NCBI GenBank assembly: GCA_965214835.1
Contig: CBDCCK010000002.1
Coordinates: 1,664,001-1,728,000, forward strand
DNA: 64,000 nt
Direction: 5' to 3'
Origin: Nitrosopumilaceae archaeon
GTDB lineage: Archaea; Thermoproteota; Nitrososphaeria; Nitrososphaerales; Nitrosopumilaceae
This document shows positions 14,756 to 64,000 of this stretch, piece by piece. Made by a program: the position numbers and the translations under genes. The notes below the pieces were generated by a model that ran no database searches, had not been told where the DNA came from, and saw nothing but the letters and a program-made list of their open reading frames with translations. Within the stretch, counting starts at the first letter, position 1. The number at the start of each line of letters is the position of its first letter.

Positions 14756-14799
14756 AAAACACGGCAGAAAACAACTGCAACCTGCCACTCGTAATTTAA

Positions 14800-15415
14800 T
14801 TACGGATTGCTTCTCAGGGGAGTCGACTGCTTGCATGGCCGCATACGCCTCGAACCTGCTTGTTCCCTTTTTGTGCTTTGATCGTATAAGGTACTTCATG
14901 TTGTCCTTGTCGTATTTGGGTATCTCGTGCCTAGTCTATTGCAATCATGACCGGGCCTTTTTTGTGAATGCCGCCCTTTTTAGCAGGACTGCAGTCTCAA
15001 TCATGTCAGCGCAGATCTTTCTTATCCCCTCAAGACCCGCGGTTCTGACCTGCCCGTGAAACCATCTTGCGGTGGGCAGGTTCTCGCTGTCTTCAAACTC
15101 CAGCACCGCCTCTGTCGCAGTCTGGCCCGATCTGCACATGGAGGACAGAATCATCACAAACTGGGGTAGTCCGTATAGTGCGTTATGCTGTTTGGAGAAC
15201 TTGATTCTGCCCCTGCCTATGATGTCTGCCAAGGTATTGGGTACCCTGTTGTCCATGTTGATGCGGTGCTTTTGCCCACTTTTGTTCACGCACTATGGCG
15301 GACAGGGGCGCCTTGCAGTTGATCTGCATGATCCAGATTTGCTTGCATTTTTGGTGGATTTTTTTATGCTGTCGTCTGCTAGGCGTGTTTAAAGTAGGTA
15401 CATTTCCATCTACTG
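14800..15415 (-). pseudogene. ISH3-like (IS4 superfamily) transposase N-terminal fragment
   Basis: HNALYG...PTARW...IAIDxHEIPKYD...LIRSKHKKGTSRFEAY spread across frames; homologous to 39182-40430. Confidence 0.7.
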
Positions 15416-15518
15416 AACAATGCAAATTGCATAAAAATTAGGCCTAATTCTAAGAGGGCGTGAATTCATACACCGAATTTTCGTATGTTTATAAAAGGTT
15501 TCTAGGCAGTAAAATTGG

Positions 15519-16304
15519 ATGTCAGCCGAACAAACTCCGGACGGTTTTTCATTGCAGCTTGGTACAGGCCTTCATCCAAAAGAATCTACAAGTGAGCTGT
15601 TCTTAAAAACTGCTACCAACCCTACATTTCCATTTTTACATATGAAAATAATCGAGGATGAAACAATTGGGGACGTTTCGATTGATATCAAAGTAAACAA
15701 AAAAATTTATGAGTTTTTGAAAACATTTGCTCAATCTGAAGACATTGTATTTTATTTTACAAACAATGGAGGATTATCTCAATGGACATTCGATATGATA
15801 GTCACCATGAAGATTCTCTCTGAATTAGAAATAATGCCAAAAATTGATAACTGGACAAAAACTGCACGAGAATGTTTGACTAAAGTAATGAACAATGAAA
15901 AGTTTGATCCTGTTTTTAACAATGAAAATGCATTGGCAAGCTCAAAAGAATTACTATCTTCATTTGAAATTTTAGATCACGTGGAAAAAACCGAGCTGCT
16001 TTTTTTGACAGCTGACGAAGCATTGAAAGAGAGAGTCATGGATTCGGGAACGCTGATTTACAGATTGGCCATGGCCATTTATCATTCTGATCGTGGCGTA
16101 GGCAGATCAATTCTAACTGCGATGGATGAGCCAAGCTCCGTATACCTTAAATTGATCAAAAGCTCCTCATATAGCAAGTGGGAATCAAAGTTTTCCGAAA
16201 TGATGAGTCTGCCACTAGAATCAAGAATAAAAATTACCAAAGTGTTAACCGCGTTTACGGTTGCGTCTTACGTCTATCATAAAACAGTAAAAGGCGATAA
16301 TTAA
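15519..16304 (+). CDS. Hypothetical protein, first gene of an AT-rich three-gene operon
   Basis: 261-aa ORF; TAATG stop/start overlap with the next gene; TATA-like TTTATAAAA at ~15488. Confidence 0.7.
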   Translation: MSAEQTPDGFSLQLGTGLHPKESTSELFLKTATNPTFPFLHMKIIEDETIGDVSIDIKVNKKIYEFLKTFAQSEDIVFYFTNNGGLSQWTFDMIVTMKILSELEIMPKIDNWTKTARECLTKVMNNEKFDPVFNNENALASSKELLSSFEILDHVEKTELLFLTADEALKERVMDSGTLIYRLAMAIYHSDRGVGRSILTAMDEPSSVYLKLIKSSSYSKWESKFSEMMSLPLESRIKITKVLTAFTVASYVYHKTVKGDN

Positions 16305-48898: not shown

Positions 48899-50299
48899 AT
48901 GTCCCAGGTCGCCTTGTCAACGATTGACTCAGGTCACATAGACGAGATATCATCATCGAGAAACGAGCCCCCGTGGCTGGCCCAATACAGGAAGGACTCC
49001 CTCTCTGTCTATGAGGATCTGCCCATAGAGACGTCCCCGCTTTACAACAAGTACACCGATGCCAAGCGAATGGATCCCGAGCAGGTCTCGCTTTCTGTGA
49101 CCTCCGATGCAACCGTTCCGCCCTTTCTGAACAGGCGGCTTGCGGAGCTTGAGGGCGAAAACCACATAATTCAAATCGGAACCAACGTCGGCCGCATCAG
49201 AATAGGCGACGAGCTGAGCTCAAAGGGCGTCATCATATCATCGATGAGCGACGCGCTAGCAGATCATCCGGATCTGGTAAGAAAGGCGCTTGATGCATCT
49301 GACTCTAGGGAGGACAAGTTCACCGCGCTAAACAACGCGGCCTTTAACACCGGGATCTTCGTCTATGTTCCAAGAAACGTCCGGCTGGAGAGCCCCATTC
49401 ACGCCCTCTCGTGCCTGTCCGTGGACGGCGTCTCTGCCATATCCCGAAATGTAGTCATTGCCGGGGAAAACAGCAAGTCTACGATAGTCCAAGAGCTGTA
49501 CTCGCCTGAGGCACCAGGGCAGCAGGCGTACCTTGAGCTGCTCAACGTCATGGCCGGTGCCGGTGCGCAGGTTGACGGGACCACGCTTCAGATGTTTGAT
49601 CAAAGCTCGGTCAACTTTTCGACCAGGAGGACCGATCTTGCCGGGGATGCAAGGCTGAACTGGTACCTGGGGCTGTTTGGCGCCCTTGTCTCAAGGTATA
49701 GGACCGACTATTACCTCAACGGGGGCGGTGCGTCTGCCAACGACTCTGAGGTGGTGTTTGGAAACGGCGAACAGTCATTTGACCTGCAGACCAACGTCAA
49801 CCACGAGAGCCGGTTCACCGAGGGGAGGGTCATCGAAAAGTCAATCCTCCAAGACAGCTCAAAGTCGCTGTTCAAGGGGATGATCAGGATAAAGGAGGAT
49901 GCATCAAAGTCAAACTCGTACCTTTCCGGACGCTCGATCCTGCTTGACAAGGACGCAAAGTCCGACGCGATTCCCGGCCTTGAAATCTTCACAAACGATG
50001 TAAAGGCCACGCACTCTGCCTCCGTGGCCCAGATCGACGAGGAGCAGATATTCTACCTCGGGACAAGGTGCCTCAGCCGCTCTGAGGCCGAGCGCACCAT
50101 TGTGGAGGGCTTTCTAGAACCGCTGTCCCGGAAGATGTCCATCCAGGTGCGTGCGTGGATTGCATACCTGATCGAGTCAAAATGGGAGGGGCGCGAGCTG
50201 TCCATTAACACCGACGAGGAGCTCAAGAAATTCACGGAAATCGAGGAGACCCGCTACAACGAAAACTCGGAGATCGAGCAGCACTACAAGTACAGGTGA
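48899..50299 (+). CDS. sufD: Fe-S cluster assembly protein SufD
   Basis: FKGMIRI, DAIPGLEIFTNDVKATHSASV, FYL-TR. Confidence 0.92.
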   Translation: MSQVALSTIDSGHIDEISSSRNEPPWLAQYRKDSLSVYEDLPIETSPLYNKYTDAKRMDPEQVSLSVTSDATVPPFLNRRLAELEGENHIIQIGTNVGRIRIGDELSSKGVIISSMSDALADHPDLVRKALDASDSREDKFTALNNAAFNTGIFVYVPRNVRLESPIHALSCLSVDGVSAISRNVVIAGENSKSTIVQELYSPEAPGQQAYLELLNVMAGAGAQVDGTTLQMFDQSSVNFSTRRTDLAGDARLNWYLGLFGALVSRYRTDYYLNGGGASANDSEVVFGNGEQSFDLQTNVNHESRFTEGRVIEKSILQDSSKSLFKGMIRIKEDASKSNSYLSGRSILLDKDAKSDAIPGLEIFTNDVKATHSASVAQIDEEQIFYLGTRCLSRSEAERTIVEGFLEPLSRKMSIQVRAWIAYLIESKWEGRELSINTDEELKKFTEIEETRYNENSEIEQHYKYR

Positions 50300-50613
50300 T
50301 CGGACTGGGCGAGTGGATCAAGGCATGCACTGCTGATCAGGTGGGCGACGGGCAGCTCTTCGGCTTTGTGCATGACGGCAAGAGGATACTGCTTGCCAAC
50401 CTGGGCGGCAGAATACACGCCACGGATCTCATCTGCACCCATGCCGAGGCGGATCTTTCCACCGGATTCCTCTCAGAGGAGGGTGTGCGCTGCCCGCTGC
50501 ATCTCTCGGTCTTTGATCTGGAGGACGGCAGGCCGCACAACCCCCCCGCCGAGGAGGCACTCAAGGTCTACAATGTTAAAATAGAGCAAGACGGGGTCTA
50601 CGTGGAGGTCTAG
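50296..50613 (+). CDS. Rieske-type ferredoxin
   Basis: CTH...CPLH Rieske ligand motifs. Confidence 0.92.
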   Translation: MIGLGEWIKACTADQVGDGQLFGFVHDGKRILLANLGGRIHATDLICTHAEADLSTGFLSEEGVRCPLHLSVFDLEDGRPHNPPAEEALKVYNVKIEQDGVYVEV

Positions 50614-50615
50614 GC

Positions 50616-51857
50616 ATGCAGAGCGCAGAGTTATCAAGCCAGGTAAGAAAGGACTTTCCAATCCTGGACAGGACTGTACGCGACGGCAAGCCGCTTGTCT
50701 ATCTTGACAACGCCTCAACCACGCAAAAACCAAACCAGGTCATTGATGCCATATCTGGCTATTATCAGAATCACAATGCAAACATCCACCGCGCAGTCTA
50801 TGCGCTGGCAGAAGAGTCTACTGAGGCCTACGAGTCTGCAAGGGACAAGGTTGCCGGGTTCCTCAACATCGGCGACAGGCAGGAGATCATCTTTGTGCGC
50901 GGTACCACTGAGGCAATCAACCTGGTCGCATACGCGTGGGGAAGGGCCAATGTCGGGGAGGGCGACGTCATCGTAACGACGGAATACGAGCATCACAGCA
51001 ACATCGTGCCATGGCAGCTGCTTGCCCAGGAAAGGGGCGCAAGGCTCGAGTACATTGAAATCGATGACAACGGGGAGCTGAAACTGGAGCAGCTGGACGG
51101 ATATCTCCGGACCGGAAGGGTAAGGCTTGTCACGTTCAGCCTGATGTCAAACGTGCTGGGAACCATAACCGATGCCCGGGCCGTCATATCAAAGTGCAGG
51201 GAGGCAGGGGCGCTTGTCCTAGTTGACGGCGCCCAGGCGGTTCCCCACATGGGGGTGGACCTGTCCGCGCTGGGGTGTGACTTTTTTGCATTCTCCGGCC
51301 ACAAGATGCTGGGCCCCACAGGAATCGGGGTACTGTGGGTGAAAAGGGAGGTACTTGAGACCATGAGCCCGTTTCACGGCGGCGGGGATATGATAAGGGA
51401 GGTCCACAAGCATGAGACGACCTGGAACGACCTGCCGTACAAGTTCGAGGCGGGAACCCCCAACATTGCAGACGTAATCGGCCTTGGCGCGGCAATCGAC
51501 TATCTGGCACGAATCGGCATGGAAAACGTCCGGGAGCACGAGGTCGGGCTGACCCGGTACGCCCTTGACCGGCTGTCGGGGGTCAGGGGCCTGACGATCT
51601 ATGGGACCCCGGACATCTCAAAGCGGGGCGGCGTCATATCGTTTAACTTCTCAGACGTCCATCCGCACGACGTAGCCCAGATCATGGATGCAGAGGGCAT
51701 CGCGGTGCGTTCGGGGCACCACTGCGCCCAGGTTCTGATGGAGAGGCTCAACGTCGCTGCGACCTCGCGGGCCAGCTTTTACATATACAATACAAAAGGC
51801 GATATCGACGCGCTGGTCGGTTCATTAAATAAGGTAGCAGAGGTGTTCAAGCTGTGA
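50616..51857 (+). CDS. sufS: Cysteine desulfurase SufS
   Basis: LVYLDNASTTQKP, EHHSNIVPW, FSGHKMLGPTG, RSGHHCA. Confidence 0.96.
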   Translation: MQSAELSSQVRKDFPILDRTVRDGKPLVYLDNASTTQKPNQVIDAISGYYQNHNANIHRAVYALAEESTEAYESARDKVAGFLNIGDRQEIIFVRGTTEAINLVAYAWGRANVGEGDVIVTTEYEHHSNIVPWQLLAQERGARLEYIEIDDNGELKLEQLDGYLRTGRVRLVTFSLMSNVLGTITDARAVISKCREAGALVLVDGAQAVPHMGVDLSALGCDFFAFSGHKMLGPTGIGVLWVKREVLETMSPFHGGGDMIREVHKHETTWNDLPYKFEAGTPNIADVIGLGAAIDYLARIGMENVREHEVGLTRYALDRLSGVRGLTIYGTPDISKRGGVISFNFSDVHPHDVAQIMDAEGIAVRSGHHCAQVLMERLNVAATSRASFYIYNTKGDIDALVGSLNKVAEVFKL

Positions 51858-52291
51858 GCAACGCGGACATTTACCACGAGATGATCATCGACTATTTCAG
51901 AAACCCCGTCAACTATGGAAAGATGGAGGATCCTGATGCTACCTACCATGATGCAAACCCGCTCTGCGGGGACAGCATTGACATTGATCTCAAGATCGAC
52001 GAGGACAAAATCAATGACATAAAGTTCCACGGCAAGGGCTGTGCAATCTGCATGGCCTGCTCGTCTGTGCTGACCGAAATAGCCAAGGGCAAGAGCCTCG
52101 AGGAGGCAAGGCAGCTGACAAAAAACGACATATTGGGAGAGCTGGGACTTGAAAACCTACAGGCAGTCAGAATAAAGTGCGCGCTGCTGTCGCTCAAGGT
52201 CCTAAAGTTTGCCCTGTACTCCTACCTTGCCAAGCATGTTGAGGGCTCTGACGTTGAAAAGCTAAAGGAAGACGCGGCAAACCTGTACTGA
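51854..52291 (+). CDS. sufU: Fe-S scaffold SufU/IscU
   Basis: NPLCGD, GKGCAIC, RIKCALL. Confidence 0.9.
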   Translation: MSNADIYHEMIIDYFRNPVNYGKMEDPDATYHDANPLCGDSIDIDLKIDEDKINDIKFHGKGCAICMACSSVLTEIAKGKSLEEARQLTKNDILGELGLENLQAVRIKCALLSLKVLKFALYSYLAKHVEGSDVEKLKEDAANLY

Positions 52292-52292
52292 C

Positions 52293-52634
52293 ATGTCAGA
52301 CTTTGTCCCCAAGGTGCCCATATCGCTGCAGATACGGAGGATAATCTTTGAGAACTATAACGATGAGGAGGGCAGGTTCAACAGCGACGACATTTTCGAC
52401 CATCTGAGGCAAAACGGCGACATTGATCCGGACTGGATTATAGATGATCTGGAGCCTGCAATAAACGAGCTCTGCGAGGCCGGTGCGGCCCGGAACATCG
52501 CCCAGAACCTTACTACGATCTGGCTCAGGCTGTTTGAAAAGCTGGAAAAGGCTCACTGCGGCTCGTGCGGCAACGACGTCTTTCTGGGGCCCTCCGAGGA
52601 CAGGGCCTGTCCGGGCTGCAGGTCCGCACTCTGA
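52293..52634 (+). CDS. Hypothetical protein with C-terminal zinc ribbon
   Basis: CGSC...CPGC; last gene of the suf run. Confidence 0.75.
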   Translation: MSDFVPKVPISLQIRRIIFENYNDEEGRFNSDDIFDHLRQNGDIDPDWIIDDLEPAINELCEAGAARNIAQNLTTIWLRLFEKLEKAHCGSCGNDVFLGPSEDRACPGCRSAL

Positions 52635-53851
52635 GCCCTCGATGCGGCCTCCTCCAGGGAGCGAATCATGGGCAGCTTTTCGCCTGTAAGGTACAGGACC
52701 AGGGCCCCGCCTGCCGTACTGATGTGGTTGATCCTCTCGGCCAGCCCATATCTTTTCAGCGCGGAGGTAAGGTGCCCCCCGCTCACTATTGTGGTGGCCA
52801 TCGAGTTTGCAACCCCCTCAAGTAGCGCCCTGGTTCCAAAGCTAAAGTTCTCCCTCTCAAAGAACCCCGCAGGCCCGCTGATGAACACCGTTCCGGCCCC
52901 GGCGATTATCCTGTTATAGTGCTTCACGGTCTTTGGCCCAAGGTCGTAGATCAGCTCCCTGGGGTTCAGCTCCCTTACGTCAAGCTCCACCCTTTCGCCG
53001 TCCTTGTCTATTGCCACATCCACCGGCGTGGAGAACACGTCCGGATACTCGCCAATCAGCGTGTGCGCCTTTGCGACCACCTCCTCCTCCCTTTTGATTC
53101 CCAACTCCGACCTGATCCTTCCCTGCGCCCTCATGAACACGTTTCCAATCAGCCCCGTGAGCAGGACGTGGTCTGCCCGCCCGTTTTTGATCAGCATCTT
53201 GATCGCCTCTAGCCTGTCTGGCACCTTTGAGCCGCCCAGAACAACAACATGGGGAGCCTTGGCCACGGTCATGATTTCGTCCAGGTTCCGAACCTCGCGC
53301 TCGACTATCCTTCCTGCACAGGCAGGCAAAACGTGCGGGAATCCCACGATCGACGGGTGCGACCTGTGCGCGCTGGGAAACGAGTCTAGGACGCACAGAT
53401 CAAACAGCCTGGACAGCCTTTTGACCATTATGGTCTTTGCGGCCTCCTGCGGCGCAAACTCGTAGTTTTCCTCCGCACACAGCCTGAGGTTGTCCAAAAG
53501 CAGAATCTCCCCGTCCTTCAGGCCTTTTATCTCGTTTTGGGCAGCCTCCCCGATTACGTCCTCGACATACTTGATCTCCCTGTTTAACATGCCTCCGATG
53601 GCCTTTGCATGCCTGTCCATTCCGCTATAGTCCGTGTTTCCGACCCTTCCCTGGTGCGAGGCGACGACTACCTTTGCGCCCTGCAGGTCCCTGATTGTCT
53701 GGATTGCCTCCTCGATCCTCTTTGTTCCCGAAATCTCCATTGACTCTGGATCGATTGGGCAGTTCATGTCAACCCTCAGGAACACCGTCTTGCCCCCTAG
53801 GTCAAAATCATCTAGCGTGAGAAACTTCACAGGCTTTCTACTTTTTACCAT
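52553..53851 (-). CDS. pgk: Phosphoglycerate kinase
   Basis: LRVDMNCP, SHQGR, LLDNLR, AHRSH, LGGSKV, SGGH, HISTAGGA; start MVKSRK at 53851. Confidence 0.95.
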   Translation of the reverse strand: MVKSRKPVKFLTLDDFDLGGKTVFLRVDMNCPIDPESMEISGTKRIEEAIQTIRDLQGAKVVVASHQGRVGNTDYSGMDRHAKAIGGMLNREIKYVEDVIGEAAQNEIKGLKDGEILLLDNLRLCAEENYEFAPQEAAKTIMVKRLSRLFDLCVLDSFPSAHRSHPSIVGFPHVLPACAGRIVEREVRNLDEIMTVAKAPHVVVLGGSKVPDRLEAIKMLIKNGRADHVLLTGLIGNVFMRAQGRIRSELGIKREEEVVAKAHTLIGEYPDVFSTPVDVAIDKDGERVELDVRELNPRELIYDLGPKTVKHYNRIIAGAGTVFISGPAGFFERENFSFGTRALLEGVANSMATTIVSGGHLTSALKRYGLAERINHISTAGGALVLYLTGEKLPMIRSLEEAASRAQSADLQPGQALSSEGPRKTSLPHEPQ

Positions 53852-54055
53852 CTTAAAATCTTTGAGCCGATCCAAAGCGGAGGACCGGGCCGGTGCAACA
53901 TGCAGGCGCGAATCTTGTTGCAGGGGAATAGGTGTGGATGAAAGCCGAGGCTGCCAGACCTGCCACGATCCAGACATGGCCTGCCATACACCTGAGAAAA
54001 AAATCCAAGCTAAACCCATATACCTGCCGGCATCAGACGTAGAGGAGTGGGATAG

Positions 54056-54724
54056 TTGCAGAAATGGATTTTTGATATTAGATCAAGGCCGTTTCTGGCC
54101 TTATCTGCGGCATCGATTGCTGTCACCCTGCTGGTCTACACCGAGGTCACTGCCGAGCTTGATGACTCGATATCTGGATATTTTGAGTCAGTGGTGGGCA
54201 ATTCGCCCCTTGACGTTATGATGCAGTATGCCACCGAGACGGGGGACGTCTTTAACATGCTGGTCTTTGCAGTAATCATAATCCTGCTGAGGCGGACCAG
54301 AAGAATTGGCATTTCCCTGATGATCCTGCTTGTAATCACGACCCTGCTGACCGGCTATGTAAAGTGCGGCGTGGACAGGGACAGGCCGGACGCTGATTAT
54401 GAGGGCCCGGACTTTCCTATACCTATCAGCCGTGACACCTTTGCCCTGTTCTGCGAGGGGAGCTTTTTTGCGTCCTATCCGTCCGGCCATGCTGCCAGAA
54501 CAATGGTGTTTGCCATAGTACTGGGCTATGCGTTATCACAGCGGTTCCCGCACGGATGCCATCTGATCCTGCTGTACCCTGCAATAGTGGGGTTCAGCAG
54601 GGTGTACCTCTTGGAGCACTATCCGATGGATGTAATCGGGGGAGTAGTCATTGCGGCGCTGCTTGCAGGCGCGCTTGCAAAGAAGACAAGGCTCTATACT
54701 ATCTTCCAGCCATCAAAAGTCTAG
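54056..54724 (+). CDS. PAP2-family membrane phosphatase
   Basis: K----R-RP, SYPSGH, SRVYLLEHYPMDV. Confidence 0.92.
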   Translation: MQKWIFDIRSRPFLALSAASIAVTLLVYTEVTAELDDSISGYFESVVGNSPLDVMMQYATETGDVFNMLVFAVIIILLRRTRRIGISLMILLVITTLLTGYVKCGVDRDRPDADYEGPDFPIPISRDTFALFCEGSFFASYPSGHAARTMVFAIVLGYALSQRFPHGCHLILLYPAIVGFSRVYLLEHYPMDVIGGVVIAALLAGALAKKTRLYTIFQPSKV

Positions 54725-55027
54725 GCCTTCTACCACGTCGGCGTTTATCAGTACAATCGCATAATGCGCATCATCATGGTGGTATGTCCAGTACCTGACA
54801 CTTCTGTGCTGGCTGGCCTTTCTCAGCCCTATGTTAATCGACGTGGTAAGCGTGTATCCTATCCTCCTTGCCAGTTTGGCCTCCTTTGGCATCAAAACCT
54901 TGAATGCCTCCCGGCGATCCCTGAACCCCATCCTTACAATCTCGTCTGCCGCATCGGATGCCTCGCCTTCGCTTTTTACGTCAAATGTCTTGCAAACCGG
55001 CAGTTTTGAGGGATGAAACTCCTCCAT
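54713..55027 (-). CDS. Hypothetical protein
   Basis: 104-aa ORF with a plausible start, convergent on the PAP2 gene. Confidence 0.65.
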   Translation of the reverse strand: MEEFHPSKLPVCKTFDVKSEGEASDAADEIVRMGFRDRREAFKVLMPKEAKLARRIGYTLTTSINIGLRKASQHRSVRYWTYHHDDAHYAIVLINADVVEGLDF

Positions 55028-55151
55028 GATTCTGCCACGGATCCGTTCTCTAATATTTCTAAGCCAAAAACCATGTTAATTTTCTTAACAGATAAGTCAA
55101 ATCATGATTATACTAATAATTTAACCGTATCCTTGATCTGAATAATACTAG

Positions 55152-56444
55152 TTGGGAACGCTTCAAAAGACCGTAATCAGGCTACAGGCAAAAAAACAGG
55201 AGGCCTCTAAGATTAGGCGCCAGACTGAAAAACAGCTGAAAAACGCAAAATCCACACTGCGCCGCTCAAAATCCGGTCTTGCATCTGCAGACAGGAGGAT
55301 CGAGTCGGCAAGGGAGGAATTATCCGACGTATCCCTAGTTTTAAGCCAAAAGTCCGCCCAAAAAGACAGCATTTTGAGGCTGATTGGCGGCGCCGAGCAG
55401 CGCCTTGGCCAGGAACGGGACGCAAAGGGGCAGGCCGAGCAGGACGCCGAGTTTGCCGATACTGACGACGAAAGGCTTGCCGCACAAAGGAGACTGCACG
55501 GGATTTTGGAGAGGATATCCGACATAGAACTTGAGATTAAGAACCGTAAGAAAACGGCCAAAAAACTGGAAGACGAAATCAGCAGCTGTTCTGCCTCTAG
55601 AGACAGGATTTCAAGCCAAATCAAAAAAACCAGTCAAACAAGGCCTGAACTAAGGAAACTGCTAAGATCCAGCACCAAGGACTCTGATGAGCTGTCCGTG
55701 CGAATGGAACGCTCATCCCGGCAGGAGATTAATGCCAAAAGGAGCCTCAAAAGGGCTGAAGAAAGGCTAAAGGATCAGCTCTCTAAAAAGCCTTCAAGCC
55801 CCAAAAAGACCGCACCCAGGGCCGTCAGGAAAACAAAGCCTTCAAGCCCCAAAAAGACCGCACCCAGGGCCGTCAGGAAAACAAAGCCTTCAAGCCCCAA
55901 AAAGACCGCACCCAGGGCCGTCAGGAAAACAAAGCCTTCAAGCCCCAAAAAGACCGCACCCAGGGCCGTCAGGAAAACAAAGACTCCAAGCCCCAAAAAG
56001 ACCGCACCCAGGGCCGCCAGGAAAACAAAGCTTTCAAGCCCCAAAAAGACCGCACCCAGGACACCCAGGGCCGCCAGGAAAACAAAGCCTTCAAGCCCCA
56101 AAAAGACCGCACCCAGGGCCGCCAGGAAAACAAAGCCTTCAAGCCCCAAAAAGACCGCACCCAGGGCCGTCAGGAAAACAAAGACTCCAAGCCCCAAAAA
56201 GACCGCACCCAGGGCCGTCAGGAAAACAAAGACTCCAAGCCCCAAAAAGACCGCACCCAGGGCCGTCAGGAAAACAAAGACTCCAAGCCCCAAAAAGACC
56301 GCACCCAGGGCCGCCAGGAAAACAAAGCTTTCAAGCCCCAAAAAGACCGCACCCAGGACACCCAGGGCCGCCAGGAAAACAAAGCCTTCAAGCCCCAAAA
56401 AGACCACGGCCAAAAAAGCAACAAAGAAATCTAGAAAACGATAA
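55152..56444 (+). CDS. Coiled-coil protein with histone-H1-like SPKK repeat tail
   Basis: ~210-aa coiled coil followed by 12 full and 1 partial KPSSPKKTAPRAVRKT repeats. Confidence 0.85.
   Translation: MGTLQKTVIRLQAKKQEASKIRRQTEKQLKNAKSTLRRSKSGLASADRRIESAREELSDVSLVLSQKSAQKDSILRLIGGAEQRLGQERDAKGQAEQDAEFADTDDERLAAQRRLHGILERISDIELEIKNRKKTAKKLEDEISSCSASRDRISSQIKKTSQTRPELRKLLRSSTKDSDELSVRMERSSRQEINAKRSLKRAEERLKDQLSKKPSSPKKTAPRAVRKTKPSSPKKTAPRAVRKTKPSSPKKTAPRAVRKTKPSSPKKTAPRAVRKTKTPSPKKTAPRAARKTKLSSPKKTAPRTPRAARKTKPSSPKKTAPRAARKTKPSSPKKTAPRAVRKTKTPSPKKTAPRAVRKTKTPSPKKTAPRAVRKTKTPSPKKTAPRAARKTKLSSPKKTAPRTPRAARKTKPSSPKKTTAKKATKKSRKR
55786..56410 (+). repeat. 48-bp coding tandem repeat (two units 57 bp)
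   Basis: AAGCCTTCAAGCCCCAAAAAGACCGCACCCAGGGCCGTCAGGAAAACA repeated with few variants. Confidence 0.97.
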
Positions 56445-56452
56445 CCCTAGAC

Positions 56453-57067
56453 ATGCCGATGAATAAACGGGGTCTCATAATCATAGGAATTGGCGTACTG
56501 CTAGCCTCAATATCGTTTGGCATTGCGTTTACTGTGTTTCCTGATTCTGATCCCACCGTAAACAGCGAGCTGTTTGTCCCGAGTCTGCTTGAGGGAATGT
56601 TTGATCAAATATCTGATCAATCCGTGGTTTTTCCCGGCGACAGCTATGTTTTCAGCTATTCAGCTAAAAACTCAGGAGTTCCCCTGATGTGGGGGGCCCA
56701 GATTGTCGACTTTGAGTCAGGTGACGCAATCCAGGTGAGGGTATCTGACATCTATGGTGATGATCTTGGTTCTGTGCAGACCGGCGAGCCTGTTATTTTT
56801 GACGTGTTTATGACTGAAAACAACGGATCATATAACTTTGAAATTACAAACATCGGGGATCGCAGCATGGCTGTCATGATGATGTTCGTCGAGGATCCCG
56901 AAAACTCTGACATACTAAACGATCCTGACTCCCCACTGGTCAGCATTGTCGTGCCTCTGGCAATATCTGGCATTGTTCTGCTGGTGGGGGTTATAGTAAT
57001 CATTGCGGGTGCAGTTTTACTTGTAATGGATTGGAAAAAAGAGAAAAATCGGCCTAGATACTATTAG
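56453..57067 (+). CDS. Membrane protein (two TM, extracytoplasmic beta domain)
   Basis: N- and C-terminal hydrophobic helices. Confidence 0.8.
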   Translation: MPMNKRGLIIIGIGVLLASISFGIAFTVFPDSDPTVNSELFVPSLLEGMFDQISDQSVVFPGDSYVFSYSAKNSGVPLMWGAQIVDFESGDAIQVRVSDIYGDDLGSVQTGEPVIFDVFMTENNGSYNFEITNIGDRSMAVMMMFVEDPENSDILNDPDSPLVSIVVPLAISGIVLLVGVIVIIAGAVLLVMDWKKEKNRPRYY

Positions 57068-57357
57068 GAAATTTTTTCCATTTCGCCAAACTTGCCTTTT
57101 GTAAGAGCAATCTCGCCCTTGAAGGAGTTGATGTATCCGTTAGTAATCTTGACTTTGTCGCCGTCATTTACCTCTTTAATGTCCTCTGCCCACAATGTGA
57201 GCTTGATTTCGCCGGCCTCGTCAACAAGGTATGCATCACAAACATCAATGGATCCGCCTGATTTCATATTTACAGTTCTTGTTTCGCCCTTTCTTTGTAT
57301 GGTACCTTCAATGTCGACTTTGCTCCTCATGTTTTTTGCTTCTTCAGTCGTGACCAT
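57064..57357 (-). CDS. Single-OB-fold ssDNA-binding protein (SSB/RPA-like)
   Basis: L-DE-GEIKLTLW, GDKVKITNGY, F-GEI-L--GKFG. Confidence 0.9.
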   Translation of the reverse strand: MVTTEEAKNMRSKVDIEGTIQRKGETRTVNMKSGGSIDVCDAYLVDEAGEIKLTLWAEDIKEVNDGDKVKITNGYINSFKGEIALTKGKFGEMEKIS

Positions 57358-57517
57358 GAAATGACTGACTCCTAGCGCAATTATAAAGTTTAGTTTTGGG
57401 GGTTCTGTGTAATCTTCGGGACATGAAACCCAGATCTTCTTTGGGTTGGAATTTTGTGCCCAAGTAGAATCCTAGGATGGCGGGTGGACGGAACCCCATA
57501 CGTCTACTAGTCCATCA

Positions 57518-57618
57518 GGGGACCGCACCGTAATTGATCTGTTTGCATCTGCCGGTTTTGTCAAGATGGTCTAAATTCCTTGATTTTCTGCCTGACTGGG
57601 GTACTTTTCACTTAGCTG
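57518..57618 (-). mobile_element. Left-end fragment of an ISH3-like element, truncating the adjacent gene
   Basis: 57518-57580 matches 40368-40429; GTACTTTTCACTTAGCTG is the inverted TIR of 39182. Confidence 0.75.
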
Positions 57619-58468
57619 ACCAATATACGTAAACTCCCCAGTGAGAGTACGGCCATACATACGACAATGTCTCTGGATTTGGTTCTTCATTTTGTACAGT
57701 GTATGAAAAATCGTTGTTTATTCCAGCATGATCACGGAATGCCCCGGCATCGCACAGCCCTCCATAGTTGCTGCTTGGAACAACTTTTGTGAAATCGTAC
57801 GGTTGCGATGCTGCGCCAGTCCAGGATGCATATTCGGCAGTCATATGATATCCGTTATTTCTCAGAATCTGCTGAGTGCTACTTAGTGTGCTTCCAGCAT
57901 CATAGGTAGTTGGTGTTGGGTCTAGCATGTGTGGATCCAAGAAATTGCCACCGCACCAAGTAGGCCATGAGTCATGATGCACAGGTGTGATTTTACCATG
58001 TAATGTGTCTGGTATCACACTTGGTGTTGTTCCAACATGACCTCCATCGCTGTCAGAAAATAGCTTTCTGAACTCCCCTGATTCAAAATCAGTCATGATG
58101 TCATGAATTTGCTCATCGATGTCGGTTTCTAGCTCATTTACCTGGCCAACGGGACCGCCATCCACATCCATAAGACGGTCATTATACAGTACATATCTTT
58201 GTGATATTTGGATGTCCAATTCGCTAATGCGTGGATCGTTTTGAGCGGATTCCATGTCTATGTCAAAGTGATAATCTTCGTCTATTGAGATGTGTTCTTC
58301 CATGACATTGAACGCGTGAAGAATGTCTGATTTTTCATATGCCGTAGTTTTTTGCGTGTCGTCTTCAACGCCCCCCGGAGCTTCTTGTGCCACTGCATTT
58401 GTCATTCCCACAGGAGCCAGCAGTGCCGGTACCAAGAGAGGCATTACGGATGTTGTTTTGCTGTTCAT
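57608..58468 (-). CDS. Secreted preproprotein A (signal peptide, acidic pro-region, Cys/Trp/Tyr-rich C-domain); C-terminus cut by an IS end
   Basis: MNSKTTSVMPLLVPALLAPVGMTNAVA signal; acidic region; ITPVHHDSWPTWCGG... domain. Confidence 0.75.
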   Translation of the reverse strand: MNSKTTSVMPLLVPALLAPVGMTNAVAQEAPGGVEDDTQKTTAYEKSDILHAFNVMEEHISIDEDYHFDIDMESAQNDPRISELDIQISQRYVLYNDRLMDVDGGPVGQVNELETDIDEQIHDIMTDFESGEFRKLFSDSDGGHVGTTPSVIPDTLHGKITPVHHDSWPTWCGGNFLDPHMLDPTPTTYDAGSTLSSTQQILRNNGYHMTAEYASWTGAASQPYDFTKVVPSSNYGGLCDAGAFRDHAGINNDFSYTVQNEEPNPETLSYVWPYSHWGVYVYWSAK

Positions 58469-58494
58469 GTTCTCACCAGTCACTATGCGCCTTC

Positions 58495-58539
58495 GTTATA
58501 TAACAATTGATATCGGTTTGCGGCATGCTTCTTTTTTCG
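58495..58539 (-). promoter_or_regulatory. Conserved promoter copy 1 (TATA box plus upstream operator-like sequence)
   Basis: Reverse strand reads CGAAAAAAGAAGCATGCCGCAAACCGATATCAATTGTTATATAAC; ATG at 58468. Confidence 0.75.
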
Positions 58540-58605
58540 AGGCCGGGACGCCCAAAGTGCCGAAAGCCGGCAAGCATTTTTACCGTCCCGGACACACATG
58601 CCTTG

Positions 58606-59853
58606 ATGAAGGCAGTCCACAAGGTGACGGTGCTGGTAGCGCTGCAGATAGTCATGACACTTGCAAGTTTTGTTATGATCATACACCTCGAGTCCCAGAC
58701 GGCGCTTACCGGCAACATCGTAAACGTTGCCGGAAAGAACAGGATCCTTGCCAGCGCGGTCCTGGTGGAGCTGAATCACGTGTTGTTTCACAACCAGACG
58801 CAGGATGCACTGTCGGGATCGCTGGATGCCCTGCATGAGAACATCCGGTTTCTAAAGTCTGGGGGAACGTCATCGCAGCTGGAGATAGCCCCGCTCTCTG
58901 CACGGTTTGCAGGGGACTGGGACCGCATACGGGAAAAGGCGTCCCAGTACGGATCCCAGGTTCACGCGCTGATGGGGCAGGATGCGGTGCACTACAGGGA
59001 CATCGAGGGGATAGAACAGACGGCCAGGGAGCTTACCGAGCTCTCAGACGCCCTCACAGAGAGGCTGGGCCGCGACGTCGATGCGCTGTCATCCCAGCTT
59101 GTGGCACTGCAGGCGGCGCTTGGCGTCATCAACGCGGCCTCGCACTTGCTGGTGATCTGGGTGGTATGGAGGATTCTTGACAGACACGCGCGACAGGTGG
59201 CCGGGGTCGAGAGGATGGCCGTCCTGGGCGAGTTTGCCGCAGTCATGGCGCACAACCTGAAAAACCCGCTGGCTGCCATAATGAACGCCTCCAACAGGAT
59301 CCGGACGCACGGCGGCGGCCACGCAGTCATAGGCGGCGAGGCAGACAGGATAGACAGGTGTGCTGCCCGCATGTCGCAGCAGATCGACGGTGTGATGAGC
59401 TATGTGCGGACCAGGCCGCCCTCCATGGAGGAGTGCTCCGTGCTGGAGATGCTGGGGCAGGCAGCGGACATGGTGCAGATTCCGGGCAACGTGGATCTGA
59501 GGGCACTCGAAGGCGACGTGACGGTACGGTGCGACCGAGAGGGGATGCAGACGGTCTTTGCCAACCTGATACAGAACGCGGTGCAGGCCATCGGCGCCTC
59601 TGCCGGGCACGTCACGGTCAGGTGCGAGGAAGGCGGCGGCCACGCCACTATAACGTTTGAGAACTCGGGGCCGCCGATACCCAAAGGAGACCTGGACAGG
59701 ATATTCGAGCCGCTGTACACCACGAAGATCCGGGGGACCGGACTGGGCCTGGCCGGCTGCAGGAACATACTGGAGGCCCACGGCGCGACGATTGCGGCAT
59801 GCAACGATCCGGTAACATTTACAATACGCCTTGAAAAACATCCTGACACGTGA
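58606..59853 (+). CDS. Membrane sensor histidine kinase with PilJ/NarX-like four-helix sensor
   Basis: TM, NIVNVAGKNRIL, TM; then H-box MAHNLKNPL, NLIQNAVQA, ENSGPPI, IFEPLYTTK, GTGLGL. Confidence 0.92.
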   Translation: MKAVHKVTVLVALQIVMTLASFVMIIHLESQTALTGNIVNVAGKNRILASAVLVELNHVLFHNQTQDALSGSLDALHENIRFLKSGGTSSQLEIAPLSARFAGDWDRIREKASQYGSQVHALMGQDAVHYRDIEGIEQTARELTELSDALTERLGRDVDALSSQLVALQAALGVINAASHLLVIWVVWRILDRHARQVAGVERMAVLGEFAAVMAHNLKNPLAAIMNASNRIRTHGGGHAVIGGEADRIDRCAARMSQQIDGVMSYVRTRPPSMEECSVLEMLGQAADMVQIPGNVDLRALEGDVTVRCDREGMQTVFANLIQNAVQAIGASAGHVTVRCEEGGGHATITFENSGPPIPKGDLDRIFEPLYTTKIRGTGLGLAGCRNILEAHGATIAACNDPVTFTIRLEKHPDT

Positions 59854-60218
59854 TGGAGTCCAAGAAGATCCTGGTGGTGGACGACGATTACGATGTGCTC
59901 GAGTCGTGCCTGCTCATGCTTGCCGACGAGGGGCACCGCGTAGTCGACGCCTCAAACGGCTCGGAGGCCGTAGAAAAATACTTTGAGTTCGAGCCGGACA
60001 TCGTGTTCATGGACATACGCATGCCGGGCATGGACGGATACGAGGCGTTCCTTAGGATCCACAGGCGCGACGGCGATGCGCGCGTCGTCTTCACGTCAAG
60101 CTACGCGCTCAACGAGCAGAGGCATGAGCACGTGCGGAGCATCGCGTCGGTGGGGATGATCGACAAGCCCGTGGCATGGCGCGACCTCAAGCGGATGATG
60201 GGAAGGCATTCTCGGTGA
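59850..60218 (+). CDS. Single-domain response regulator (CheY-like receiver)
   Basis: ILVVDDD, DIVFMDIRMPGMDG, IDKP; coupled to the kinase. Confidence 0.95.
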   Translation: MMESKKILVVDDDYDVLESCLLMLADEGHRVVDASNGSEAVEKYFEFEPDIVFMDIRMPGMDGYEAFLRIHRRDGDARVVFTSSYALNEQRHEHVRSIASVGMIDKPVAWRDLKRMMGRHSR

Positions 60219-60225
60219 CGCTGCA

Positions 60226-61116
60226 TCACGGAGGGGTGCCAGAGTTCATGGCCGCGAGTCTTTTTTTGCAGTGATCCCCTGCCTCGTCAAAAAACCCCCG
60301 GTACCACGCGCGCATCTCCGGGTTCTTCTCAAACACCCTCCTAGTCCGCCCCGCGGCGTTCCTCCTTGCCTGCACGGATCTGGACGGGTGTGCATGGTAC
60401 AGGAGGTAGGTGTAAAACCAGTACGATATCTGCTCTGCCAGATCGGACTCGGATATGACCTCAAAGTTCCTCCTGTACTTTGTGTGCACGAACGACATCA
60501 GCTCGTGTACCGGGCCGTCGGCGCGTCCTGCCGCGGGCGTGTCCAGAAACAGGGCCTGGGAGAGCACCCGCAGACAGTACACGTTGTCCCCCAGCGCGGA
60601 CTTTAGCTCGTTCCACATTCCAAATATCCTGGGAAGCGTGCCCGCATACACCGATGCCATCCTGTCTATGCCGTTCCCGTCAAGATTCATCGCGTCAAGG
60701 CAGTACAGGATGCCGTGCAGCGAAAGCCTGTACTCCCAGGAATTCTTCCTCCCTGTCGTCTTTTTCTCCCTTACGGCCAGCCCCGTGTCCAGGATGCCGC
60801 CGGTGTACCTGCCCCTGTCGCGCCGCCCCACAAAGAACCGCCGGTACTCCATCTCCTTTCTCCGGACGTCGTTTATGTTGCGGAGCTCCAGCCTTGCCAT
60901 GTCCCACGTGGTGCATGCGCCATGGGCCGCCAGCAGTCCCAGCATGTGCTGCACGCTGCTCTGGTACTCTGTCCTCGTCTTTGCAAAATGGCCGCATCGC
61001 GCATGCGCCATGGGCCTCGTATGGATCTTGTACGACATGAGGTTGCCGTAGCTGTGCCAGTCCTCCATCAAGGGGGGCATGGCATGTCCCGTATTTTTTC
61101 CTATGTGTCCGCGCAC
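60226..61116 (-). CDS. Hypothetical basic protein, putative winged-helix regulator (start may be 61038)
   Basis: LLAAHGACTTWDMAR helix pair and wing-like YRLSLHG; convergent on the receiver gene. Confidence 0.6.
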   Translation of the reverse strand: MRGHIGKNTGHAMPPLMEDWHSYGNLMSYKIHTRPMAHARCGHFAKTRTEYQSSVQHMLGLLAAHGACTTWDMARLELRNINDVRRKEMEYRRFFVGRRDRGRYTGGILDTGLAVREKKTTGRKNSWEYRLSLHGILYCLDAMNLDGNGIDRMASVYAGTLPRIFGMWNELKSALGDNVYCLRVLSQALFLDTPAAGRADGPVHELMSFVHTKYRRNFEVISESDLAEQISYWFYTYLLYHAHPSRSVQARRNAAGRTRRVFEKNPEMRAWYRGFFDEAGDHCKKRLAAMNSGTPP

Positions 61117-61225
61117 GATGCAAGGGTATTCCCCACCGGATCACCTTTGCCCTGCCGGTCACGGATTTACAGCGCATGCCCGATCTGTCAGGCCAGGCGG
61201 CTTTTGGCGCCCTAGCTCCCCTGCC

Positions 61226-61271
61226 CGAAAAAAAGAAGCATGCCGCAAACCGATATCAATTGCTATATAAC
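61226..61271 (+). promoter_or_regulatory. Conserved promoter copy 2 (inverted relative to copy 1)
   Basis: CGAAAAAAAGAAGCATGCCGCAAACCGATATCAATTGCTATATAAC; same spacing to ATG 61298. Confidence 0.75.
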
Positions 61272-61297
61272 AAAGGCACATAACTACCTGTAAGGAC

Positions 61298-62166
61298 ATG
61301 AACAACAGAGCAAAAAAACCGCACTGATCCTGTCCGGTTCGCTGATCGCCGCGGCGGTTCTGCCGCTCGGCGTGGCCAGGATGGCAGATGCGGCCGCAGA
61401 CAGGGAGCAGACCAAGGAGGGATTCAAAAGCGACGTAAAGCAGTGGCTGCAGAGCCTTGGTGCTGACAAGCAGTCAAGGGCCGAAAAGACCGAGGAGCTA
61501 AAGCAGAGCTATAACGAGTTCCTGCTAGACACGATAGAGCACGTACGCGTCTTGACCGACACCGGCGATCTAACGCTTGAGGAGAAAAAGGCCGCAACGC
61601 AGTACATCGTGGATGAGACGATAAAGGACGAGCGGTTCAAGCTTGCAACGGACGGCGGCGACAGGCTCGATTCGGCGTTTCTGGACCTGCTTGGGATACA
61701 GACGGCCCAGGCCACGTGTCCGGCCACCACCAATCCTGCGTACCGGCAGCTGGCAATCGACATCGACGGCGGCACGTATGGAGGATATGCGTTTAACGGA
61801 GACAACGGCCTGTACCCTGTCCTGTACGAGGACGATCCGGGCAGCTGCGGGAGGACGTTTACACTTTCGTTCTACGACGAGGACCATCCTACATTTGACG
61901 CATTTTATGACGGCCTGAGATTCTTCCTGTTCAACAGGGTGTTTGACATCGAGTCATTCACTATCCGGAACAACAGCCAGATAATATTCGACGATTCCCG
62001 GAGCTCCGGTAATCAATATGGATGTCTAGCTGGGGCTGAAGGGTGCCACGACAGCGGCACGCTGAGCTACGCCCCGGGCCAGACGGTCTACGTAAGCAAC
62101 ACCTGGAACCACATGATGAGTATGTCTGATACAAACCCGTCCCTGGCAAAGGTCTCTGTGCCTTGA
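61298..62166 (+). CDS. Secreted preproprotein B with Cys-containing C-domain; ATG is out of frame by one base at an A7 tract
   Basis: Adding one A at 61312-61318 gives MNNRAKKTALILSGSLIAAAVLPLGVARMADA fused to ORF 61372-62166 (…QTAQA-TCP…YVSNTWNHMM). Confidence 0.7.
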
Positions 62167-62185
62167 CCCACTTTTTATTTTAGAA

Positions 62186-62539
62186 TTGCCGTTTGGAGCC
62201 CACAGGCTGGTCCGATTCTTTACGGAGAAAAAGACAAACCTGCTGTATGTCATAATGCCGGCATACGGATCTTCAGTGCCACCGCTTTTGGATCTTTTTG
62301 GAAAGGTCAATCCCGTGCTGAACCCTGTCACACTGAACCCTGCAACCGTGGTTACGCTCATCCTTTTGGAATTGAGTAGGATATATGGAATATATGTTGA
62401 CTATCCTTTCGAATTCTTTTTGGTGATAGTGATCTCGAACCTGTTGTTCTGGGTTCCAATGGCCCGCTATGTCATGATTCCGTTGCTGAACAGGGTGTTT
62501 TATCCCAAACGCAAGGATGGTAGGTGGACTAGACCCTGA
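62186..62539 (+). CDS. Small membrane protein
   Basis: Two to three hydrophobic segments and a basic C-terminus; 19 bp after preproprotein B; start uncertain. Confidence 0.5.
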   Translation: MPFGAHRLVRFFTEKKTNLLYVIMPAYGSSVPPLLDLFGKVNPVLNPVTLNPATVVTLILLELSRIYGIYVDYPFEFFLVIVISNLLFWVPMARYVMIPLLNRVFYPKRKDGRWTRP

Positions 62540-62840
62540 TTTTCACATCCTGTGCGTGACTCAGACTCGAACCCTTCCTAGTTAAGACCCAATCCCAGAA
62601 CGGGCTTGTTGGGCAGCCTGTGCCTTATGGGTCTGTCAAATTCGACGGCACAAGAGTTTACCTAGCCAGCATTTGCACTGGTGACGGATGACGGTGTCAT
62701 GCCTGCCCACAACCTAAACACAAGGTACTGGCATCTGGTGCGGACCGACCTTGCACACTCGGAGAAGGGATGAACTGCTTTTTGGACTATACACGTTTCC
62801 ATTAGAAATTCAAAAATACGGGCGCCCTTGAAATATCGTT

Positions 62841-62941
62841 GCAGGGGTATCGAAGCCCGGTCAACCGAGGGGGACTCAAGATCCTAAAAATAGGAAATCC
62901 CCTCTCTTAGGAGTTCGTGGGTTCAAATCCCACCTCCTGCA
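62841..62941 (+). tRNA. tRNA-Leu(CAA) with a 16-nt intron at the canonical 37/38 position (62881-62896)
   Basis: Acceptor GCAGGGG/CTCCTGC-A; anticodon stem GGGGA/TCCCC with CTCAAG; long variable arm; GTGGG-TTCAAAT-CCCAC T-arm; intron hairpin TCCTA/TAGGA. Confidence 0.92.
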
Positions 62942-63163
62942 TACTTGACCTTCAAAAGTAAATTTCTGCAACTGTGGCTTTTGCCATGATCGCACATGTT
63001 TTGCAATTTGTGTTGTTCCCTGCGAGGGATCTACTCATGTCCGTCCCCACTGGTCATTGTCTCCTAGGGCAGCCTCAAGATCCCCGGTTATCACGACGAG
63101 CATTCCATAGATCTTGCTCTGGGGACTCGTCTGGATCCTGAGGCTGATTTGTCAAATTCGGGA

Positions 63164-63334
63164 GACTTTGAAGACTTTTGGCGCCTGAAGGCCCTGTTTT
63201 GACTACTTTGACTACTTTGACTACTTTGACTACTTTGACTACTTTTGGCGCCTGAAGGCCCTGTTTTGACTACTTTGACTACTTTGACTACTTTGACTAC
63301 TTTGACTACTTTTGGCGCCTGAAGGCCCTGTTTT
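63164..63334. repeat. Nested tandem repeat: (GACTACTTT)x5 blocks separated by three copies of TGGCGCCTGAAGGCCCTGTTTT (67-bp period)
   Basis: GGCGCCTGAAGG at 63180, 63247 and 63314. Confidence 0.95.
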
Positions 63335-63415
63335 ATCTGAAGATTTGACAAGCCATCTAGCCATTCACATGACTTTTAATTATGGATCACTTCTCTGGCC
63401 GGCAGGCACGTAACC

Positions 63416-64000
63416 TCACACGTCGTTTTCTGAGCCTCGACCCCTTAAGAGATATTCTCTAAACAGCGGTATTGGAAACCGGTATGCCCCGCGTCTGGGC
63501 CTGTGGATGAGGCCCTTTTCTTCCAAGCGCCTCAGATGGCTTGACAGTGTACCCTTGACGATCTTCGATGATTTCTGAATCGAAGAGAGTGTGGTTTCTT
63601 CCTTCTGTAGGGATGCTATGGCATGCAATACGCGTATCTGACCATCGCTCAATGGCTCCACCCGGCGATCAAAGAAATCACGCCACACCTTCTTTTTTAT
63701 CAGATTTTTAACTGACCTGTAGTCATCCAGGTCTATGTCCTCCTTGCTGATGCGGCTTATGATCTCACTACAAAAAAACTGGATAAAGTACGGATACCCG
63801 TCCGTGTCCTGCACGATCGATGAGACCAGCTCATCGGAAAACCTCCAATTGGTCTTTTTGAGCGGCTCTAATATCGCTTTTCGGGCGCCGTCATCGCCGA
63901 GATTGCCTATGAGAAATGACGTGAACATCCTCTGAGTAGGAACGTGCGATCTTGATGTTCGCTGACAGGGCCGGGAGCCCGGACAAGACAAACGAGTACC
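63416..64000 (-). pseudogene. 3' part of an AAA+ ATPase with C-terminal winged helix; frameshift near 63930; continues beyond the window
   Basis: VLSGLPAL...ARSYSE/RMF, TDGYPYFIQ, LSSHLRRLEEKGLIH...GAYRF-IPLFREYL. Confidence 0.75.

Follow-up and report, generated by a model that had tools for sequence, protein, structure and literature searches.

In the available text of the survey by Galperin et al. (2018, PMC5847659), bare receivers (REC) make up about three quarters of the response regulators of thaumarchaea, and their route to transcription is open. Most genes encoding only a receiver have no conserved neighbourhood; some thaumarchaeal ones lie beside ArsR/HTH_20 genes (arCOG03067), an interaction yet to be shown. 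In Methanosarcina acetivorans, MA4377 encodes a hybrid kinase, MA4376 a REC-only protein and MA4375 an Msr regulator with helix-turn-helix (HTH) and DUF1724 domains, and a relay to this factor is proposed in the accessible part of the report (10.1101/2021.03.04.434021). Here we describe a cassette in a 64,000-nucleotide stretch of DNA from a Nitrosopumilaceae archaeon (contig CBDCCK010000002.1, positions 1,664,001 to 1,728,000), the whole of which is referred to as the window. In this cassette a membrane histidine kinase, a stand-alone receiver and a regulator, here called REG, are enclosed by two outward-facing genes for secreted proteins, A and B; B is followed by a small membrane open reading frame (ORF). 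The arrangement, <-A [P1] kinase-> REC-> <-REG [P2] B-> membrane ORF->, with P1 and P2 as twin promoters, had been claimed in a preliminary description and is present in the sequence. We consider it rather likely that the trio is a split two-component transcription switch of Nitrosopumilaceae.

The evidence for this switch starts from a short DNA element. Upstream of REG in relatives stands CATRCCRCA, followed after 17 bp by WWATAW; in full, the element kept at the promoters reads GGCATRCCRCA, with the TATA box 17 bp further on. Both window promoters carry it: P1 (58496..58530, minus strand), which drives A, holds the candidate operator CATGCCGCA at 58527-58519 and a TATA box at 58501-58496, and P2 (61236..61270, plus strand) holds CATGCCGCA at 61239-61247 and a TATA box at 61265-61270. 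The two form an inverted repeat of 95 nt with 82% identity (58453-58547 and 61219-61313), the longest of 35 inverted pairs in 50000-64000, where the runner-up has 28 nt. Their offsets to each ATG are equal, as the preliminary description stated; its shared core with one mismatch also stands, at a length of 43 bp instead of 37 bp. Its three palindromes of 6 bp (GCATGC, GATATC and CAATTG), on the other hand, give way to GGCATRCCRCA as the candidate operator, and GATATC and CAATTG are not conserved across the family. The twin promoters are real but no private pair, for the source genome holds nine copies, and the regulon loses the epithet "self-contained" with these nine sites and up to 13 in relatives. 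Nor is the motif part of a miniature inverted-repeat transposable element (MITE): it keeps a fixed distance before gene starts and tracks the presence and clade of REG.

REG is present in 49 of 161 family genomes, about a third (14 of 61 relatives in the first set), and in 31 of 73 family genomes versus none of 47 genomes from other families of the class. The motif occurred in all 14 REG-positive and 7 of 47 REG-negative genomes of the first set, a comparison that is partly circular. A further set comprised 126 genomes outside the derivation of the motif, with one genome with a weak, split REG match excluded; two or more sites were found in 31 of its 35 REG-positive versus 5 of its 91 REG-negative genomes, which include kin, so that the counts are not independent. 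The totals were 167 versus 27 sites (2.63 versus 0.19 per Mb), and a reversed-pattern control gave 4 and 4. The contrast was upheld in nine of ten mixed genera, the exception, g2, having a variant motif. Across 100 sites, positions that had not been searched for were conserved too (AAGG at -4..-1 and ATT at +20..+22), and an ATG stood at +52/+53 in 55 of them, so the promoters are leaderless or have short leaders.

The motif also changes with the regulator. Near genes for REG proteins with the hairpin sequence ARGK, position +6 of the motif is A at 29 of 29 sites; near those of the other group, which mostly has DRG[KR], it is G at 37 of 37, and near those of a third clade the motif has CAC[TG]CC at 8 of 8; the pairing of hairpin and motif also holds inside genomes with two REG types. 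No strict site is found in 3 of the 35 new REG-positive genomes, two of which have a variant motif; two REG-negative genomes hold 3-4 sites; the covariation between clades reflects no more than two events in evolution; and A stands at +6 in two of the nine sites of the source genome despite its DRGR-type REG. Even with these points on the other side, it is very probable that REG reads GGCATRCCRCA. As a separate observation, a pair of near-identical promoters precedes secreted genes in G066 (loci L132 and L137), a genome in which the search gave no REG; this is possibly a regulon remnant after loss of the regulator.

In the proposed mechanism, REG would bind GGCATRCCRCA and activate short-leader transcripts there; the TATA box, with a weak B recognition element (BRE), follows after about 17 bp. 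According to the available text of PMC5937170, archaeal activators have their sites upstream of BRE/TATA, and RNA polymerase is blocked by regulators that bind further downstream. Target activation is inferred from this position of the sites, and this predicted step is strongly supported by the genomics. In at least 19 of the 37 loci described below the motif covers the start codon of REG itself (CAT on the other strand), so REG binding would also repress REG. In the window, on the contrary, the motif lies 158 bp from the REG ATG, and this geometry of autorepression does not apply directly.

The conservation of the trio was read from 37 full REG genes in fetched loci, a subset of all matches. 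A receiver gene lies within 900 bp in 36 of them; in 35 the two genes stand tail-to-tail, abutting or overlapping, and in 31 a kinase gene directly precedes REC. The REC-REG pair is kept without a kinase in four loci (L026, L027, L031 and L125), and no other conserved output partner for REC appeared in the loci read. The co-occurrence of this regulator family with kinase-receiver pairs, and the synteny on which the preliminary description had staked its reading, are thus both borne out, with the kinase -> receiver -> <- regulator order retained. Named source organisms include Nitrosopumilus ureiphilus, Nitrosarchaeum and Nitrosotalea.

REG of the window (60226..61080, minus strand; 284 amino acids, aa) consists of an N-terminal winged helix (about residues 18-136) and an all-helical C-domain. 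Its model has a predicted local distance difference test score of 87, with helices at 38-53, 58-65 and 69-84 and a wing at 102-119. Nearly all of the top 50 structural rows for residues 18-136 are winged-helix domains, with Z of 7-8.6; the best one (Z 8.6, root-mean-square deviation, rmsd, 1.5 over 62 residues) has a middling score within a uniform list. The predicted structure hence supports what had been called a putative winged-helix regulator. The core of the preliminary reading has withstood each of its three refuting conditions, which concerned this fold, the synteny and a MITE origin of the motif. Foldseek returned nothing for REG at E<=0.001, and no family name was found for it in Pfam, NCBIfam or Atlas. 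Distant relatives of 260-600 aa, without Pfam domains, also occur outside trios (L118:3426-4049 and 14198-15601; P0188-P0310), which suggests a wider unnamed winged-helix family around REG.

The kinase (58606..59853, plus strand; 415 aa) is composed of a transmembrane (TM) segment, a four-helix PilJ/NarX-like sensor, a second TM segment, HisKA and HATPase_c. HisKA and HATPase_c score above the Pfam cut-off, and His216 and the N and G2 boxes are present. The stand-alone receiver (59853..60218, plus strand; 121 aa) matches Response_reg of Pfam and has an intact active site (D10/D11, D54, T/S, K105-P106), of which D10, D11, D54, K105 and P106 are invariant across 15 aligned receivers. The presence of a two-component pair, recognised earlier, is well founded in these matches and residues. 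From the intact motifs and the linkage of the genes, the kinase would autophosphorylate on His216 and pass the phosphate to Asp54 of REC; REC would then alter the activity of the separately encoded REG, likely via the helical C-domain, a step to which the linkage points.

That the receiver controls REG is probable from gene order, and several observations tell against the proposed switch. Linkage by itself cannot separate direct REC-REG binding from shared physiology; in the kinase, whose activity is predicted, the His is followed by Asn and the G1 box reads ENSG, two variants also seen in relatives; no REC-REG fusion was seen in 33 scanned of the 150 distant or long REG homologues listed; and in M. 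acetivorans later preliminary data excluded the neighbouring Msr regulators, according to the available text of PMC11784639. A predicted REG-REC complex scored 0.01 against a mark of 0.32, with the controls not folded, and is evidence neither way. The strongest competing explanation is that REG is a one-component regulator with its own ligand, that the kinase operon is among its targets and that REC signals to another protein. The C-domain of REG could bind such a ligand, the missing fusions fit this view, and the motif drives the kinase gene or operon in L030, L034, L037, L106 and L115, a control that could by itself keep the genes together. We regard this explanation as unlikely, given that REG stays beside REC where the kinase has moved or gone, that the tail-to-tail arrangement is so regular and that REC has no other conserved partner in the loci read. 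Control of REG by the phosphorylated receiver is the reading retained below.

The targets differ between lineages. In genomes such as G013, G018, G030, G032 and G087 the genes behind the sites encode small proteins, many of which contain CxxC pairs, or form the kinase operon. In the source genome, G004, G021, G036, G066, G076 and G094, signal peptides are found in 17 of the 19 ORFs at 23 sites in chosen loci. As predicted from these ORFs, secreted targets are typical of some lineages only, and the genome size and repeat load of these lineages suggest an association with hosts. Behind 15 of 25 such ORFs lies an ORF with a predicted TM helix, a count from crude hydropathy in a TM-biased choice without control. 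Among the products of secreted genes nearby are a matrixin-type peptidase of G036, which scores above cut-off, a metallopeptidase of the source genome, which stays below threshold, and a protein of G076 with motifs that we take to be trypsin-like from its sequence. In addition, a family of proteins of about 50 aa ending in D-L-x-G-L-[ST]-W recurs among the targets in compact genomes (L098, L100, L102, L110 and L117).

Since the promoters of the source genome front genes with signal peptides, the switch probably co-induces a secreted toolkit there, in which many targets would be followed by a small membrane gene. The favoured reading, at about even odds, pairs each secreted effector with a membrane protein that would confer immunity or act as an accessory; the odds are likewise even that the targets serve either competition or host interaction.

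Gene A (57608..58468, minus strand) encodes a 286-aa protein with a signal peptide, an acidic pro-region and a C-domain with two invariant Cys and an EPNPE motif. A repeated element of about 103 bp (57516-57619; more than 20 copies in the genome) overlaps its last codons. The C-terminal W-W-H kept in 8 of 8 homologues is absent from the window gene because the element took the place of these codons. Gene B (61298..62166, plus strand) is frameshifted: read from the ATG at 61298, it ends at codon 10 because of a frameshift near codon 7 in a poly-A run (61312-61318), and the long open frame (61372-62166) has no signal peptide of its own. An intact 292-aa paralogue lies in a second cassette. Contigs from four of the ten listed sequencing runs were used to check the depth at this frameshift. 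Contigs of the paralogue type accounted for the whole depth in run X1, for 57.9 of 166.3 in X2 and for 58.7 of 121.9 in X5; since they cover only part of the depth in X2 and X5, the window allele is probably real, with the caveat that other promoter copies may contribute. The small membrane protein behind B (62186..62539, plus strand; likely start at ATG 62255) is a candidate immunity or accessory protein.

No Pfam match was found for A, B, REG or the membrane ORF, REG remaining without one at E 0.1. Gene A has no informative relative, Atlas giving only a weak row (0.81). The C-domain of B has invariant D-E-D-H-P and N-T-W-N-H motifs, and residues 144-292 are covered solely by structural rows of Nep1-like proteins (NLP; Z 3.9-4.4, rmsd 3.4-4.1, 100-109 residues), in a search made with the full-length fold, whose wide listing was dominated by N-terminal helices. 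Identity is 7-12%, Foldseek E is 1.3 and Z is in the range of common arrangements; Foldseek gave nothing for B at E<=0.001, its PDB profile matches held no NLP, and NPP1 was not among 25 of the 42 families listed for 33 members. An NLP fold in the modelled C-domain is therefore a lead only. Halocin C8-like preproproteins carry a small Cys-rich C-terminal peptide. The halocin-like nature proposed for A and B finds no support, as the C-domains have 120-150 aa, no Pfam match, and two Cys in A and four in intact B; with these Cys counts, "Cys-rich" was an overstatement.

The sensor offers a candidate signal. Directly behind the first TM segment of the window kinase stands VNVAGKNRILAS with G43-x-x-R46; G43, N45 and R46 are invariant in 10 of 10 aligned sensors. 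According to the available parts of PMC8199190 and PMC6381276, NarQ, NarX and McpN bind nitrate through a G-x-x-R motif. The window kinase resembles these proteins in its TM - four-helix sensor - TM layout with G-x-x-R right behind the first TM segment, and differs from NarX and NarQ in having HisKA rather than HisKA_3 and an incomplete N-box. McpN (6GCV) is the sole sensor domain among the PDB sequence matches, at E 0.1; apolipoprotein matches were read as generic four-helix bundles and rejected. Less favourable are the agreement with the full N-box [IVL][ND]xAGxQRML[ST]Q at 6 of 10 fixed positions and a PilJ score of 20.8 bits, below the cut-off of 26.6; PilJ is matched at E<=0.1 by 3 of 10 aligned sensors. 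Sensing of nitrite or nitrate is plausible because the organism produces nitrite, and we tentatively name nitrate or nitrite as the likeliest signal of the window kinase, with some doubt prevailing. Most trios of the family bear other, longer sensors, unlike the NarX/NarQ/McpN type; the sensor domain differs between trios and its type maps to no single REG clade. Taken whole, the scenario that across the family a phosphorylated bare receiver switches a dedicated winged-helix activator of a new kind with an operator of its own, with a nitrate/nitrite-type sensor in some lineages, and that the own product of nitrification serves as a cue of density or niche to induce secreted effector-immunity pairs, is somewhat unlikely.

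The nine promoter copies of the source genome all stand at a fixed distance before an ATG. Behind eight of them lie ORFs whose N-terminus is hydrophobic, and the remaining one precedes the broken B. The sequence that the copies have in common reaches 160 bp at most and takes in the leader and the first codons. The second cassette (C2:2029585-2037735), about 308 kb away and about 91% identical, has three promoters; an extra promoter and gene lie between its REG and B, and this gene is interrupted by a multi-copy insertion. Window P2 resembles the first of the two second-cassette promoters there upstream of the TATA box and the second downstream of it. P2 is thus a deletion chimera, and the window copy lost the intervening gene by recombination. 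Decayed pieces of kinase, receiver and REG lie beside other promoter copies or isolated in the genome, in which a profile search found intact receivers only in the two trios. The window copy is, judged from its sequence, a partly decayed duplicate, in which the trio is intact, both flanking targets are damaged and one gene is deleted. Over 58700-61000, kinase-receiver-REG contigs of runs X2 and X5, which come from two other samples, have letters of the second copy at about twice the flanking depth, which may reflect gene conversion between the two cassettes.

Such copying gives substance to another explanation, in which a basal factor, e.g. an alternative TFB, reads the motif or the motif is a copied REG promoter, so that the twin promoters would be by-products of duplication and the cassette a decaying passenger. 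It can draw on the shared flanks of the source-genome copies and the chimeric P2, on the damage to A, B and C in one or other copy of a genome rich in repeats, and on the CAT of the motif being the REG start codon in many relatives. It is nevertheless markedly improbable: sites in other genera share the motif and spacing and not the flanks, occur far from REG, are near background in REG-negative congeners and change with the hairpin sequence of REG. Symmetry as a mere by-product of deletion was likewise dropped, because outward kinase-side sites occur in at least 13 of 37 loci and a two-sided cassette with secreted genes recurs in G076 and G094, of another genus, the latter with A homologues on both sides. 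Least probable of all is that REG is purely a repressor at all sites, from which phosphorylated REC would lift it: the site overlaps the REG start, the BRE position coincides in part with a second, weak element at +19..+22 and many top structural rows are MarR, ArsR or PadR repressors, yet the core site lies upstream of BRE/TATA at targets, the BRE lacks the consensus AA (available text of PMC5937170) and so common a fold gives no sign of the mode of regulation.

The cassette, with its proposed split switch, lies between repeats and a tRNA gene. At its left edge two abutting short repeated MITE-like elements occupy 57398-57529 and 57516-57619 (no strand assigned); short multi-copy elements of this type flank it at 57398-57619 and 62731-62798. 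At the right edge an intron-containing tRNA gene (62841..62941, plus strand) was found by Rfam and missed by ARAGORN; its anticodon was assigned as Leu-CAA by homology to tRNA-Leu(CAA) of G076. In G076 ssb and this tRNA are about 280 bp apart with no cassette between them, so the window cassette is an insertion between ssb and the tRNA; the comparison rests on G076, as stretches with the flanking gene from three other genomes showed no tRNA. Elsewhere, a REG fragment of the source genome adjoins an AsnC-like gene and an ABC permease gene, and the motif in G016 fronts a similar permease gene, a hint at an older regulon member (loci L042:7269-10204 and L107). Window positions 55152-56444 encode a protein of 430 aa that has a coiled coil at its N-terminus and about 14 repeats of 16 aa rich in Lys/Pro (PSSPKKTAPRAVRKTK), is of histone-H1-like composition and shows a 48-bp repeat at the DNA level. 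Repeats of 9 bp (GACTACTTT) form an array at 63156-63340 whose higher-order unit is 67 bp. The array lies just past the end of an ORF (63416-64000) that is ATPase-like and has an HTH at its C-terminus; related pieces are at C2:1338000-1343700.

A literature search, which included few subscription papers and no supplements, where Galperin et al. may list such genes, gave no account of the trio or of its operator. The trio suggests a testable answer to how archaeal receivers reach DNA. It provides a candidate output protein, a likely operator, a predicted regulon in 49 of 161 genomes and base-level predictions of specificity. It would also show one regulatory module rewired from small intracellular to secreted proteins in some lineages.

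Among described systems, the locus is like MA4377 - MA4376 - MA4375 of M. acetivorans in placing a kinase, a stand-alone receiver and a separate factor side by side. It is unlike that set in its factor family, its non-hybrid kinase and its family-wide trio with an operator, which is undefined for M. acetivorans in the available text. With the arCOG03067 pairs it shares the lineage and a receiver adjoining an HTH gene; those pairs, as far as the available text describes them, are divergent and ArsR-type, while REG, of 284 aa, is encoded convergently to REC in 35 of 37 loci and lacks an HTH_20 match. The comparison with TFB-RF1, taken from the accessible part of PMC5937170, shows in both cases a site that is recognised from its conservation between genomes and is followed, at a constant distance, by a weak BRE and a good TATA box. 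TFB-RF1 has no two-component input there and auto-activates, whereas the site of REG covers the REG start; TFB-RF1 binds a palindrome interrupted by a spacer, and the REG site is a pseudo-palindrome extended on one side. QarABC of Haloferax volcanii is likewise an archaeal three-gene two-component locus with a transcriptional outcome, but is formed, according to the available text of PMC13464002, by two response regulators and a kinase, while REG has no receiver domain. In its proposed working the trio resembles the kinase-REC-Msr relay combined with a promoter logic of the TFB-RF1 type. Within two-component signalling it is a variant in which both the regulator family and the operator are new.

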